Part shown: piece after piece, positions 961 to 4,405 of the stretch
Position numbering within the stretch: the first letter of the stretch is position 1
Layout: each line of letters begins with the position of its first letter
Origin: a virus
Lineage: Duplodnaviria; Heunggongvirae; Uroviricota; Caudoviricetes
Length of the DNA stretch: 4,474 nt
Virus record (IMG/VR): IMGVR_UViG_2740892268_000007
Strand: one strand, 5' to 3'
Program-made: the position numbers and the translations under genes
Notes under the pieces: generated by a model
Databases searched by the model: none
Seen by the model: only the letters and a program-made list of their open reading frames with translations
Told to the model about the DNA's origin: nothing

Positions 961-1264
961 GGTCACTCTTACTTCCTGGNNNNNNNNNNNNNNNNNNNNN
1001 NNNNNNNNNNNNNNNNNNNNNNNNNNNNNNNNNNNNNNNNNNNNNNNNNNNNNNNNNNNNNNNNNNNNNNNNNNNNNNNNNNNNNNNNNNNNNNNNNNNN
1101 NNNNNNNNNNNNNNNNNNNNNNNNNNNNNNNNNNNNNNNNNNNNNNNNNNNNNNNNNNNNNNNNNNNNNNNNNNNNNNNNNNNNNNNNNNNNNNNNNNNN
1201 NNNNNNNNNNNNNNNNNNNNNNNNNNNNNNNNNNTGAAGCAGATAGCCTCAAGCACCCGCAGTC

Positions 1265-1294
1265 ATTCTACTTACCTCGCCAATATGAAATCAA
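1265..1294 (-). promoter_or_regulatory. Candidate promoter directed into the masked block
   Basis: On the minus strand: TTGATT (plus 1289-1294), 18-nt spacer, TAGAAT (plus 1265-1270). These are the same two hexamers as the candidate at 801-828. It sits just downstream of the queH-like stop and points into the N block. Hexamer match only. Confidence 0.2.
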
Positions 1295-1315
1295 TCAGAA
1301 AGGTGCCCCATAAAA

Positions 1316-2002
1316 TCACTCCTTCTCTTCTTTACCGTAGTGGAGTTGACCAATTTTGATAAGAGGGCGTCCCTGAGATTTGCGGTGTAGATTGGTATCG
1401 CGCAGAGAATACACACAGCCACAATATTCCTGCTGATAGAATTTTTCGCGCTTGCTGATTTCAATCATACGGGACGAGCCGCCCTGCTTGCGCCAGTTAT
1501 AATCCCAGTACACCATGCCCGGATAATGCGCGACGGCTCGCCGCCCACAGTCGTTAACCTGCTGCATATTTTTCCAGCGTGAAATGCCCAGTGAACTGCT
1601 GATCACACTGAAACCATTTTCAGCGGCGTACAGCGCTGTCCGCTCAAAACGCATGTCAAAACACATGGTGCAACGGATCCCTCGTTCGGGCTCCCATTCC
1701 ATTCCTTTGGCTCGTTCAAACCAGTTGTCTGTGTCGTAATCAGCATCAATAAACGGCACGCCGTGTTGTTCAGCAAAGCGAATATTCTCATCCTTACGAA
1801 TTAAATACTCTTTCTGAGGATGAATGTTCGGGTTGTAGAAAAAGATGGTGTAGTCGATTCCCGAGGCCTGAAGCGCCTCCATCACCTCACCGGAACATGG
1901 AGCACAGCAAGAGTGCAGTAGTAGTTTGTTTGCCCCGTTTGGGAGCTCCAATTTGGGCCGTTTGAAATCAGCAACTGTCATAAATATGTTTATTGGGGTC
2001 AT
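1316..2002 (-). CDS. queH: QueH-like epoxyqueuosine reductase (DUF208 family, Fe-S, cobalamin-independent)
   Basis: 228-aa ORF with ATG at 2002-2000 (alternative ATG at 1981-1979) and stop TGA 1318-1316. The protein carries [11 protein letters not shown] near the N-terminus, FYNPNIHP...EY...R, RC..C in the middle and [11 protein letters not shown] near the C-terminus, which I recognise from memory as the conserved Cys and aromatic motifs of the QueH/DUF208 family. No obvious SD in front of either ATG. Confidence 0.8.
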
Positions 2003-2149
2003 AAAAATATCAAAGAGTGTAGCATTAGAACGGGGCTATCGGAAACAGATGTGTGACTGCTCCCCGCCCTTTCGGGTGGTCTCCTGATGATTTGAGGGTG
2101 CAGAAATCCCTCCGGTTAAGGATTAAATTTTTAACAGTGCTAAATTTAA

Positions 2150-2506
2150 TTATTCAGTTCTGGATTTTGTCGCCCTGCGTATCCGCGCTTTCGCGTTACG
2201 CTCAATCTGTATCAGCTTTTCTATATTTCTCCGCCTTTCCTGTTCCTCCTGGCGCAATAGCCTTACATCATCTGCCAGTCTGGTTTCTCTTTTTGCCACA
2301 GAGAGCATCCAGTCAAACGGCTCCACAACCGCACCGCAGATTTTACAGCGGACCTGACGCTCTTTTTCGTCAACCCGTACAGAGGCGTGATGGCAATATG
2401 GTCTTTCCGATGGCTCATAAAGAAAATTAACCTGATTACGAGGGTCATCCTCTTTTACCGGAAATAAAACGATATTGCTTAACTCATCTTCTGGTTTTAT
2501 TTCCAT
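2150..2506 (-). CDS. Small zinc-ribbon protein with basic coiled-coil tail, function unknown (118 aa; maximal ORF 2150..2563 is 137 aa)
   Basis: ATG at 2506-2504 is preceded by the purine tract AAGGAGAGGAG (strong RBS). The alternative ATG at 2563-2561 directly abuts the upstream TGA (TGAATG) and has AGGAGG 11 nt upstream. Protein has C-H-H ... C-x-x-C (CHHASVRVDEKERQVRCKIC) followed by an Arg/Glu-rich helical tail. Stop TAA 2152-2150. Confidence 0.65.
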   Translation of the reverse strand: MEIKPEDELSNIVLFPVKEDDPRNQVNFLYEPSERPYCHHASVRVDEKERQVRCKICGAVVEPFDWMLSVAKRETRLADDVRLLRQEEQERRRNIEKLIQIERNAKARIRRATKSRTE

Positions 2507-2563
2507 GCTCCTCTCCTTTGATGCGAATGCCAGCGGTAATTGAAGCCTGATAGCTAATTTCAT

Positions 2564-2986
2564 TCACAGTATCGCCTCCTGAAAATTACCCTGATAGAAA
2601 GCCAGTACACGCTGCATAGCTTCGCTCTTCCGGCACTCGCGACAGATTATATTCAGGCGCCTGTCGTAGCGGCGTATTTCTCCGTCAGGTAATGACCAGA
2701 TAAGGTCCGGATCAACAACAACCGGTTTCCTCACCTTTACTCTCGAGAGTTTTTTGCGGGCGCTTTGCCAGTCCTTGCGAGCCTGTTCAGACGGGAATAA
2801 GCCGTAGCCAGAATTATATACATCACCACTTGCGACCAGTTCTATGCATAAGCGACCGACAGACGCACGACTGATACCTGTTTCATCTGACAACTGCCGA
2901 ATCGTGACCCGACCGTCCTGATGCACGAGTTCCACAATTCGCGTCTTCAGTTCTTCCCGCTGTTCGGGAGTAAAAGGTTTCGCCAT
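2564..2986 (-). CDS. ren: Ren-like winged-helix protein (140 aa)
   Basis: ATG at 2986-2984 preceded by a perfect AGGAGG with a 4-nt spacer, lying 11 nt after the helicase-loader stop. N-terminal HTH (TIRQLSDETGISRASVGRLCIELVASG). C-terminal motif ICRECRKSEAMQRVLAFY resembles, from memory, the lambda Ren C-terminus (...KECRQSAAMKRVLAVY). Its position directly after the helicase-loader gene matches lambda O-P-ren order. About 45 aa longer than lambda Ren. Confidence 0.55.
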   Translation of the reverse strand: MAKPFTPEQREELKTRIVELVHQDGRVTIRQLSDETGISRASVGRLCIELVASGDVYNSGYGLFPSEQARKDWQSARKKLSRVKVRKPVVVDPDLIWSLPDGEIRRYDRRLNIICRECRKSEAMQRVLAFYQGNFQEAIL

Positions 2987-3000
2987 AAATCCTCCTGAAA

Positions 3001-3792
3001 CTACTTAACAACCCTCGAATGGCTAACATTCGGACGCCAGCTCTCCCAGTTAAAATTCACCCAGCGCCCGCCGTTCATGACCATGCGATCCATCACCCGC
3101 TCGCCGAGCAATGTTTTCATCACCTCATAGTTCAGGTTTGTCAGCATCCCCACGCTGCGCATCGACGCTGTCCGGCGATCAACAATCTGGTGCAGCACCA
3201 CCTGCTCGTTTTTCGTCTCGCGCTGAATGCCAATTTCATCAAGAACCAGCAGATCCACTTCGCACAGCTCCCGCAAAAATTTTTCGCCTGACTGCCCGTC
3301 GTCATAGCTGGCGTGCAGGGCGCTCATAACATCAGCCACGGTAACCACAATCACTGTCTGACCGTCTTTCAGCAGGCGATTCCCGATAGCTGCCGCTAAG
3401 TGATTCTTCCCGGTACCAGGTTTTCCGCTGAACGCAAAATTTGTACACCCGGTCATCAGTTCATCGGCGATGGATTTCGCCTGGCTTAACGCGTATCGCT
3501 GGCCGTCGTTCTGNNNNNNNNNNNNNNNNNNNNNNNNNNNNNNNNNNNNNNNNNNNNNNNNNNNNNNNNNNNNNNNNNNNNNNNNNNNNNNNNNNNNNNN
3601 NNNNNNNNNNNNNNNNNNNNNNNNNNNNNNNNNNNNNNNNNNNNNNNNNNNNNNNNNNNNNNNNNNNNNNNNNNNNNNNNNNNNNNNNNNNNNNNNNNNN
3701 NNNNNNNNNNNNNNNNNNNNNNNNNNNNNNNNNNNNNNNNNNNNNNNNNNNNNNNNNNNNNNNNNNNNNNNNNNNNNNNNNNNNNNNNNNNN
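3001..3792 (-). CDS. DnaC/IstB-like AAA+ helicase loader (phage replication protein, YdaV/P-like); true start hidden in N block 3514-3792
   Basis: Visible part has Walker A (FSGKPGTGKNHLAAA), Walker B (DLLVLDEIG) and a C-terminal region typical of DnaC-like prophage proteins; stop TAG 3003-3001. A DnaC-like protein of roughly 245 aa would start inside the mask. The track ORF 3001..3972 (TTG) fuses it to the upstream initiator C-terminal domain through the Ns. Confidence 0.8.
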   Translation of the reverse strand, partial: XXXXXXXXXXXXXXXXXXXXXXXXXXXXXXXXXXXXXXXXXXXXXXXXXXXXXXXXXXXXXXXXXXXXXXXXXXXXXXXXXXXXXXXXXXXXXQNDGQRYALSQAKSIADELMTGCTNFAFSGKPGTGKNHLAAAIGNRLLKDGQTVIVVTVADVMSALHASYDDGQSGEKFLRELCEVDLLVLDEIGIQRETKNEQVVLHQIVDRRTASMRSVGMLTNLNYEVMKTLLGERVMDRMVMNGGRWVNFNWESWRPNVSHSRVVK

Positions 3793-4141
3793 CGCGAACA
3801 GGCCCTGGTATTCATTGGCGATGCTGTGTCGAATCACCTGCTCAGGTGTAAAACCCTGCTGACGGAATTTTTCCAGTTCCCGTATCGCCCCGTTAGCGCC
3901 CTGCTCCGTTCGAATCGGTTTTCGCAATGCCTGTCTGAACCGGACCCACTCATGCCAGAGTGTTTCCGGCAACCAATCGGGCAGCTCAATAGCCTCCGGC
4001 TCGAATTTTTTAGACGCTCGTTTTTGGCGAGGGGGAGATCAGTATTTAGATCTTCCTCTTCCTCTTCCTCTGGTAACGCTTTTTGATCCGTTTGTGTAAC
4101 GCTGGCAGCGTTACCTTTTCGTTTCAGTTCGCGTATTTTTG
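3793..4141 (-). pseudogene. Frameshifted middle and C-terminal portion of the phage replication-initiator gene (acidic linker plus helicase-loader-interaction domain)
   Basis: After the 4142..4405 ORF stops, coding continues without any start codon in the -1 frame (KKRAVTNERVTKIRELKRKGNAASVTQTDQKALPEEEEEEDLNTDLPLAK...), then again in the next -1 frame (KKFEPEAIELPDWLPETLWHEWVRFRQALRKPIRTEQGANGAIRELEKFRQQGFTPEQVIRHSIANEYQGLFA) into the N block. Frame changes coincide with T8 (4167-4174) and T6 (4006-4011) or T5 (4021-4025). This is either a true pseudogene or a homopolymer miscall. Confidence 0.5.
4051..4070. repeat. (TCTTCC)3 hexanucleotide tandem repeat, encoding EEEEEE on the minus strand
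   Basis: Plus strand tcttcc tcttcc tcttcc tc at 4051-4070; minus-strand codons gag gaa gag gaa gag gaa within the initiator linker. Confidence 0.7.
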
Positions 4142-4405
4142 TTACTCGCTCGTTTGTAACCGCCCGTTTTTTTTAGAGCTTTTTCCGTTATGACGTTCAA
4201 AGTTAGGTAGAGAAAGCCCTCCGTCATTTTCGACCAGCCATCCAACCTGAATTAACGCATCAGCAAAACCAGACATAAAAGTGATGCGATCTATTGCACT
4301 TTTTGTAACGCCGCGAGCGTTACAATCTGCATTACCGTCTATCATTTGTTGATCCGCCCATGCCCAGAAGCGAATAACCTGAGGTAGCCTGAGTTTAACG
4401 GACAC
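4142..4405 (-). CDS. N-terminal fragment of the phage replication initiator (replisome-organizer / YdaU-like DNA-binding domain), likely 5'-truncated
   Basis: 87-aa ORF (GTG 4405-4403, stop TAA 4144-4142) ending ...LSLPNFERHNGKSSKK, which resembles the lambda-O-type ...PQNEGKSPKK boundary between DNA-binding domain and linker. The first 9 codons (4380-4405) are encoded by what looks like an IS terminus, so the real N-terminus is probably missing. Confidence 0.5.
   Translation of the reverse strand: MSVKLRLPQVIRFWAWADQQMIDGNADCNARGVTKSAIDRITFMSGFADALIQVGWLVENDGGLSLPNFERHNGKSSKKNGRLQTSE

Follow-up and report, generated by a model that had tools for sequence, protein, structure and literature searches.

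The window considered here is the whole 4,474-nucleotide (nt) stretch of the Caudoviricetes record IMGVR_UViG_2740892268_000007 in IMG/VR, and it comes from the early-right region of a Rac-like lambdoid prophage, of which it shows one strand, with all genes on the minus strand. At 1316-2002 it contains an uninterrupted minus-strand open reading frame (ORF) of 228 amino acids (aa) with the motif EYCGCVYS, whose product is, practically beyond doubt, QueH, a member of the iron-sulfur (Fe-S), cobalamin-independent reductases of epoxyqueuosine (oQ), the precursor of queuosine (Q) in tRNA. The closest reference is Escherichia coli FDAARGOS_944 (NZ_CP065613.1), with 99.9% identity over window positions 1235-3513 and 87-979. 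The gene, the leader that accompanies it and the rest of the spacer up to the next gene are delimited as follows.

1316..1981, minus strand: queH coding sequence (CDS), 221 aa, predicted Fe-S cobalamin-independent epoxyqueuosine reductase (Pfam, alignment, predicted fold, comparative start).
1982..2052, minus strand: 5' leader moving with queH (upstream alignments of 5 and then 14 contexts).
2053..2149, minus strand: distal spacer, context-specific, which goes with the upstream gene and not with queH (matches to phages without queH).

An earlier reading of the window, made from its letters alone (the original prediction), took 1316-2002 as the QueH gene; the ORF is indeed present with the motifs quoted, but comparison of alleles moves its start to the ATG at 1981. 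The 228-aa form, which is simply the longest ORF and begins 21 nt too far upstream, is rejected because the codon matching the ATG at 2002 is ATT in E. coli A10, where an in-frame TAA follows it, because a single inserted C in IMG/VR locus L075 shifts the same upstream ATG out of frame, and because the ATG at 1981 is common to all compared alleles, where it is also the start given by PGAP (221 aa, WP_012421537.1). With the start at 1981, queH is therefore separated from the end of the upstream ORF (2150) by 168 nt, and not by the 147 bp (2003-2149) of the earlier reading.

The product matches the Pfam family QueH (PF02677) with E=1.9e-65 and 220.6 bits (cut-off 23.5) over profile positions 1-174 of 175, so that 1316-2002 is no chance ORF, and it matches the crystallised QueH of Thermotoga maritima (7lc5) with E=5e-22 and 30% identity. 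We aligned the window protein with 34 relatives (35-86% identical), taken from an exhaustive HMMER search, which gave 4755 relatives at E<=0.001, and from a word-index search. All 17 columns that are invariant in this 35-sequence alignment are conserved in the window protein, and they include the seven invariant cysteines, C25, C26, C29, C104, C107, C187 and C189 (221-aa numbering), which form the pattern CCxxC ... CxxC ... CxC. An AlphaFold model built from the homologue alignment has a mean predicted local distance difference test (pLDDT) score of 95.8 and a predicted template modelling (pTM) score of 0.91, and its five best Foldseek matches in the PDB are the five T. maritima QueH entries, with target-normalised template modelling (TM) scores of 0.90-0.92 and root-mean-square deviations (rmsd) of 1.3-2.0 A. 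The best superposition is on 7lc5 (TM 0.92, rmsd 1.3 A; lowest E 2.9e-14), and the runners-up, TtuA, TilS and other alpha-hydrolase-fold (PP-loop-type) enzymes, are far behind. Every family hallmark that can be checked in silico, namely the profile, the cysteine constellation and the fold, is therefore in place, and the identity first proposed for the gene is borne out by all three. The protein is already named 'epoxyqueuosine reductase QueH' in RefSeq by PGAP, though no model in an NCBIfam search matches it.

As an enzyme, the QueH of the window is a conventional family member with nothing unusual about it. It shares with T. maritima QueH (7LC5/7LC7; PF02677/IPR003828, DUF208) a full-length profile match, the predicted fold and all seven of the conserved cysteines, and it differs at position 29, which is Cys (CCAPC) in the window protein as in all 35 aligned sequences and Asp in T. 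maritima (CCAPD; the D13N mutant is entry 9dco). A basic C-terminal tail extends past the region that aligns to T. maritima and is common to the chromosomal enterobacterial copies. The identity of 79-92% to chromosomal QueH of Enterobacterales suggests that the enzyme would convert oQ34-tRNA to Q34-tRNA without cobalamin. What distinguishes it from known QueH is its carriage by a temperate phage whose host has a QueG of its own. Compared with E. coli QueG (YjeS), it is expected to catalyze the same reaction on the same tRNAs, but QueG depends on cobalamin and a [4Fe-4S] cluster (PMC5175355), and QueH is non-homologous to it with a different fold; moreover, QueG belongs to the chromosomal core and the prophage queH is accessory.

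In the prophage, queH forms a small, tight cargo cassette (about 740 bp) made up of the CDS and a leader of 45-70 nt, with no terminator. The proximal ~45 nt of the leader are conserved in all compared alleles and ~70 nt in most, and most E. coli matches stop near window position 2052. The distal spacer at 2053-2149, on the other hand, is found in phages that have the upstream gene without queH, and it is unrelated to the spacer between DUF977 and queH in other prophages. In BL21(DE3) the site is empty, with DUF977 followed directly by hokD, and homology to the hok module restarts 3 nt past the queH stop codon, which defines the 3' junction. Among the 80 prophage loci of our IMG/VR survey of queH contexts, queH is co-directional with the replication genes in every one. 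Its upstream neighbor is DUF977 in 64 loci, the zinc-ribbon-like ORF of the window in 12 and another gene in four, and downstream it is followed by hokD in 65, by the Dcm methyltransferase of a Dcm/NgoMIV-type pair in 13 and by the contig end in two. The survey of related prophages that had been suggested with the original prediction thus finds the insertion at the same position and in the same orientation in 80/80 loci.

The site past DUF977 is a hotspot for accessory genes, defense genes included, and other cargo at or beside it comprises a DUF1971 gene in A10 and an opposite-strand ORF of 810 nt that replaces queH in ETEC4068. In E. coli O157:H7 Z1768 (L008, 2806-4816), a DNA cytosine methyltransferase gene paired with an NgoMIV-family endonuclease gene lies directly after queH and replaces hokD. 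Like the 'morons' and nin-region cargo of lambdoid phages (hok/sok, restriction-modification pairs, ipaH, tRNA genes), queH shows a presence/absence polymorphism at a fixed site, adjoins other accessory cargo and belongs to host-type metabolism rather than to phage propagation. It differs from a classical moron in lacking a detected promoter and terminator of its own and in having the same GC content as its flanks (~0.50 across queH and 0.43-0.57 in the flanks, with no compositional anomaly). Hence, queH is a discrete insertion as a moron should be, but without its own promoter and terminator it falls outside the classical definition.

The prevalence of queH was counted in 5426 complete E. coli genomes, and relatives outside this species were sought in one genome per GTDB species. 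The gene is present in 995 of the E. coli genomes (18%; 985 at >=80% coverage), with 1014 chromosomal and three plasmid placements that are mostly 95-99% identical, and the carriers include ST131, some O157:H7, APEC O1, strain 042 and Shigella-like strains. Since queG is found in 5426/5426 genomes, and so in every queH carrier, the phage QueH would be a second, non-orthologous route to Q. The statement that enterobacteria normally use QueG is therefore correct for E. coli but too broad for the order, as QueH proteins 79-92% identical to that of the window are carried by many Enterobacterales, among them Providencia, Photorhabdus, Erwinia, Serratia, Pantoea, Enterobacter, Kluyvera and Scandinavium. 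Acinetobacter baylyi ADP1 is reported to have both QueG and QueH (Zallot et al., 2017), with both genes on the chromosome. Two oQ reductases in one cell are thus common to ADP1 and to the E. coli carriers, but in E. coli the second enzyme is prophage-borne and varies between strains (18%).

Among the GTDB species representatives, Escherichia albertii (99%) alone shows the same prophage context. The relatives that follow are chromosomal and come from Scandinavium (92%), Kluyvera (91%) and Enterobacter (89-90%), and the copies inspected in Scandinavium and Enterobacter lie among metabolic genes. The QueH proteins of Erwinia-like bacteria, Providencia and Photorhabdus are 80-86% identical and have non-phage contexts, the Providencia gene being located among tmcA, purC and a dapE-like peptidase gene and the Erwinia-like copy (on metagenome contigs) adjoining purL; all five of the Enterobacterales contexts that were inspected are non-phage and chromosomal. 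From these identities and contexts, the chromosome of some other species of Enterobacteriaceae is the most likely source of the phage queH. Conservation of QueH among the Proteobacteria is unusually high in general, the prophage copy being 76-80% identical to those of Sphingomonas, Rhizobium, Paracoccus, Pseudomonas and Stenotrophomonas. Some homologues carry implausible organism labels (Bacillus subtilis; a 328-kb 'Acinetobacter phage MD-2021a') and probably stem from contaminated assemblies.

Within 50,697 deposited phage genomes, HannyBb is the sole isolated coliphage with a close copy (96.5% identical), which is annotated as a 'hypothetical protein', and the other 24 tblastn matches are short 'Bacteriophage sp.' fragments from fecal metagenomes or dubious records. 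All 80 IMG/VR copies are intact with 221 codons and represent five protein variants in all. Four distinct prophage alleles give pairwise ratios of nonsynonymous to synonymous divergence (dN/dS) of 0.025-0.054 at a dS of 0.15-0.45, which amounts to strong purifying selection on QueH during its residence in phages.

We propose that the prophage carries a functional QueH cargo cassette of Enterobacteriaceae origin, which uses host oQ-tRNA as its substrate and gives the cell a second, B12-independent route to Q, and we consider this explanation as a whole to be probable. E. coli makes both oQ- and Q-tRNA, and it has no de novo synthesis of cobalamin, which it imports through BtuB. According to papers that cite Frey et al. 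(1988), the reduction of oQ in E. coli is cobamide-dependent (PMC5175355), and in other bacteria QueH takes the place of QueG (Zallot et al., 2017, cited via PMC5372724 and PMC6063277). On family knowledge from the T. maritima structures and from Zallot et al. (2017), the QueH protein, with a [4Fe-4S] cluster and an adjacent iron in an adenine-nucleotide-alpha-hydrolase fold, would reduce the epoxide of oQ34 to the cyclopentene of Q34 in tRNA-Asn, -Asp, -His and -Tyr, needing no cobalamin and acting on oQ-tRNA that would be supplied by the host Tgt and QueA. The gene lies in the early-right transcription unit, which runs from replication to nin, of Rac-like lambdoid prophages in E. coli, Shigella-like strains and E. 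albertii. With cobalamin in short supply or not imported, the phage copy would most likely keep the tRNA fully Q-modified; as QueG needs an imported cobamide, a B12-independent second reductase would be the simplest benefit. That queH is expressed in lysogens, and thereby uncouples the completion of queuosine from the supply of cobalamin and its uptake by BtuB in about one-fifth of E. coli strains, is a more doubtful step that we put forward tentatively. If it is true, a temperate phage would bring about lysogenic conversion of the anticodon-modification state of its host (oQ versus Q), which might be favored in a gut short of corrinoids, or after loss of BtuB as an escape from colicins and BtuB-dependent phages. 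It would also, to our knowledge, be the first phage-encoded enzyme shown to complete a wobble hypermodification of host tRNA.

Several points weigh against this explanation. For E. coli, we know of no established effect on physiology of having oQ- instead of Q-tRNA, and codon usage does not point to any special demand for Q, with an NAU fraction of 0.556 in the prophage genes and 0.568 in the host (a sample of 12 host genes). Neither of the candidate start codons of queH has a Shine-Dalgarno sequence. In simple consensus searches of two queH contexts, which a non-canonical promoter could escape, there was no sigma-70 consensus promoter ahead of queH on its coding strand, and the stretch between queH and hok held no intrinsic terminator. 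In the repressed prophage queH may be silent and, if so, could not back up QueG in lysogens.

The long spacer had been taken to suggest independent regulation, a view that finds no support here, as the region has no detected promoter, terminator, Rfam element or stable fold and a similar gap is present in all contexts measured. An Rfam search of the whole window (E<=1) returned nothing, and hence no preQ1 or cobalamin riboswitch, and the spacer RNA does not fold more stably than shuffled sequences do (z=-1.28); by these two results a riboswitch or other RNA element in the spacer is ruled out. As a gap of roughly 170-270 nt precedes queH in every context measured, the long spacer is not peculiar to the window. 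The only candidate signal is a weak extended -10-like motif in the conserved leader, TGnTATTTT, at window positions 2012-2004, which was read by eye, was not flagged by the promoter scan and is present in all aligned alleles but the divergent A10. The position of the cassette, together with the lack of detectable signals, would favor expression in the delayed-early operon, and the conserved leader may leave room for expression in the lysogen. On the plus strand, opposite to queH, a promoter-like TTGAAA-17-TATGTT is located at 1962-1990, overlapping the first queH codons and pointing toward the upstream gene, and in a second context the corresponding site is TTGAAA-17-TATTTT (L010, 5647-5675); these sites could represent an antisense promoter or a chance match.

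The same enzyme with the same tRNA substrate could instead serve the phage. It is possible, though we lean the other way, that queH is transcribed only in the delayed-early rightward operon after induction or infection, and it is likewise conceivable rather than likely that more Q-tRNA during lytic growth tunes the translation of phage genes or counters a host response that works through the oQ-to-Q step. Such a role is consistent with the embedding of queH among replication and nin genes, co-directionally in 80/80 loci and without a detectable promoter or terminator. According to a 2026 preprint, Shewanella responds to phage infection with induction of queG and a shift from oQ to Q, and this step would then be dynamic during infection; therefore, either timing of expression, in the lysogen or in the lytic cycle, is plausible. 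Against a phage-serving role, prophage and host genes do not differ in NAU/NAC bias, the conserved leader with its extended -10-like motif accompanies queH and so leaves lysogen expression possible, and queH is intact in a window whose prophage appears to be decaying (IS600, frameshifted replication gene).

That QueH acts on 7-deazaguanine in phage DNA, as an anti-restriction modification, has a negligible probability in our view. Phages do use the Q/archaeosine pathway on DNA (PMC6884629), and queH adjoins a restriction-modification pair in 13/80 loci. The known 7-deazaguanine DNA-modification clusters of phages (DpdA with FolE/QueD/QueE/QueC, or Gat-QueC) are likewise phage-borne and borrowed from the queuosine/archaeosine pathway, but in these DpdA inserts preQ0-type bases into DNA, whereas the window prophage has only the last, tRNA-specific step and no DpdA. 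No DpdA/TGT or preQ0 genes were found within the window by Pfam or NCBIfam, and neither tgt nor dpdA nor queC/D/E/F is annotated in the whole ~43-kb prophage (integrase to ipaH) of the best-matching genome; host oQ-tRNA would therefore be the only substrate available. The preference of the original prediction for a tRNA target, which had relied on the lack of a TGT/DpdA partner in the window, thus gains from the absence of both in that entire prophage. In addition, QueA makes oQ on tRNA and no DNA counterpart of it is known, the protein is 80-92% identical to chromosomal QueH of the tRNA pathway in non-phage contexts, and PADLOC gave no defense-system match for QueH or its neighbors apart from weak helix-turn-helix noise. 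This last result and the very high identity to non-phage chromosomal QueH also speak against a recruitment to some other role, such as anti-defense or moonlighting, as does the retention of the conserved positions without phage-specific changes. Such a role, which we judge to be very unlikely, would suit a prophage hotspot that holds toxin-antitoxin and restriction-modification systems and has variable cargo between DUF977 and the nin genes (hok/sok, Dcm with the NgoMIV-type endonuclease, DUF1971, the 810-nt ORF in ETEC4068). Also highly improbable is that queH is a neutral passenger of no benefit to phage or host, which hitch-hikes with the hok/sok addiction module and the mosaic recombination of the nin region. 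The linkage to hokD in 65/80 loci and the presence of QueG in every host genome would be expected of a passenger, but the low dN/dS in spite of substantial synonymous divergence and the intactness of all 80 copies at 221 aa would not, and queH also occurs with no hokD directly downstream, beside the Dcm/NgoMIV or the DUF1971 gene.

Queuosine biology has E. coli K-12 as its reference organism, in which the last step proceeds via QueG with imported vitamin B12, and we take it to lack a prophage queH. If QueH is active, Q could be finished without B12 in about 18% of the E. coli strains found in nature, B12 limitation would leave strains with differing oQ/Q status, and temperate phages would carry an editor of the host translation apparatus in addition to toxins, defense systems and tRNA genes. 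As the enzyme name is already in RefSeq, what is new is the fixed association with one lambdoid prophage slot, the frequency of 18% alongside QueG and the strong selection on the gene. The analysis also exposes an annotation gap, in that the PHROGs family that corresponds to QueH (phrog_3217) is listed as of 'unknown function'; its profile starts at Met41 (residues 41-228) and lacks the CCxxC motif. Many phage records may thus annotate the ORF with a truncated N-terminus and without CCxxC, which would hide the identity of QueH from phage annotation pipelines. A survey of deazaguanine pathways in phages reported no QueA, QueG or QueH homologues among the viruses analysed (PMC6884629), and the profile start at Met41 may be why such a phage-centred survey missed QueH. 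In the literature on QueH/DUF208 and phages or prophages we found no paper that describes a prophage-borne queH or any of these new points.

The other genes of the window, all from the early-right region, are listed below.

969..1294, minus strand: hok/sok-type type I toxin-antitoxin module, directly downstream of queH (hokD annotation in NZ_CP065613.1).
2150..2563, minus strand: upstream hypothetical gene (PGAP 2150-2506, 118 aa), with a weak, sub-threshold zinc-ribbon match (PHROG 1621).
2564..2986, minus strand: DUF977 or 'Ren-like exclusion protein' with a winged-helix domain (PF06163, E=1.1e-33; PHROG 142).
3001..3513, minus strand: 3' part of a ydaV-like (DnaC-type) replication ATPase gene, the remainder being masked (PGAP annotation of NZ_CP065613.1).

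In NZ_CP065613.1 the order of genes is cI-like, cro-like, ydaT, the replication initiator, the ydaV (DnaC-type) ATPase, DUF977, a 118-aa hypothetical protein, QueH, hokD, a 95-aa hypothetical protein, DUF1367 (NinB-like), DUF1364, DUF1133, four tRNA genes and the lysis genes. The placement of queH between a Ren-like gene (DUF977, PHROG 142) and the nin/late-regulator region of a lambdoid prophage, as first described, is thus confirmed. By comparison with the same genome, the masked block at 980-1234 corresponds to most of hokD (stop codon at 969-971) and its leader, and that at 3514-3792 to the junction of the ydaV-like ATPase and replication-initiator genes. Neither counterpart encodes a partner enzyme, in line with the earlier remark that the masked blocks are too short for a TGT or DpdA. 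The masked run over hokD (255 nt) is 36 nt shorter than the matching stretch of the near-identical record, and the promoter scan gave a promoter-like TTGATT-18-TAGAAT on the minus strand at 1294-1265, within the hok/sok module.

Positions 1-86 of the window are not prophage but the end of the IS3-family insertion sequence (IS) IS600 (93% identity), an element that is common in Shigella. The match to NZ_CP065613.1 ends at 86 within the DUF1367/NinB-like gene, leaving that gene interrupted after ~102 of 198 profile positions, and the source of the window therefore differs from FDAARGOS_944 by an IS600 insertion. The replication-initiator region at 3793-4405 has two gaps at 97.8% identity and split frames (ORFs 4142-4405 and 3793-3972), and in NZ_CP065613.1 the initiator is an intact 262-aa ORF. 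The IS600 insertion and the frameshifted replication gene suggest that the prophage is in decay while its queH stays intact.

An exact 11-nt direct repeat, GCTCCCCGCCC, occurs at 950-960, just downstream of hokD, and at 2059-2069, in the distal spacer upstream of queH; each copy reads GGGCGGGGAGC on the coding strand, and chance is a possible explanation. The upstream copy overlaps a small hairpin, GCCC-GAAA-GGGC. No tRNA genes were found within the window itself. The cargo of the NZ_CP065613.1 prophage includes four tRNA genes (Ile, Arg, Thr and Gly, hence no Q-tRNA; L001, 9183-9493) upstream of the lysis cassette, a DedA-family gene that adjoins the lysis genes (L001, 6723-7235) and, at the far end of the prophage, the type III secretion system effector gene ipaHb (L094, 16761-18587).

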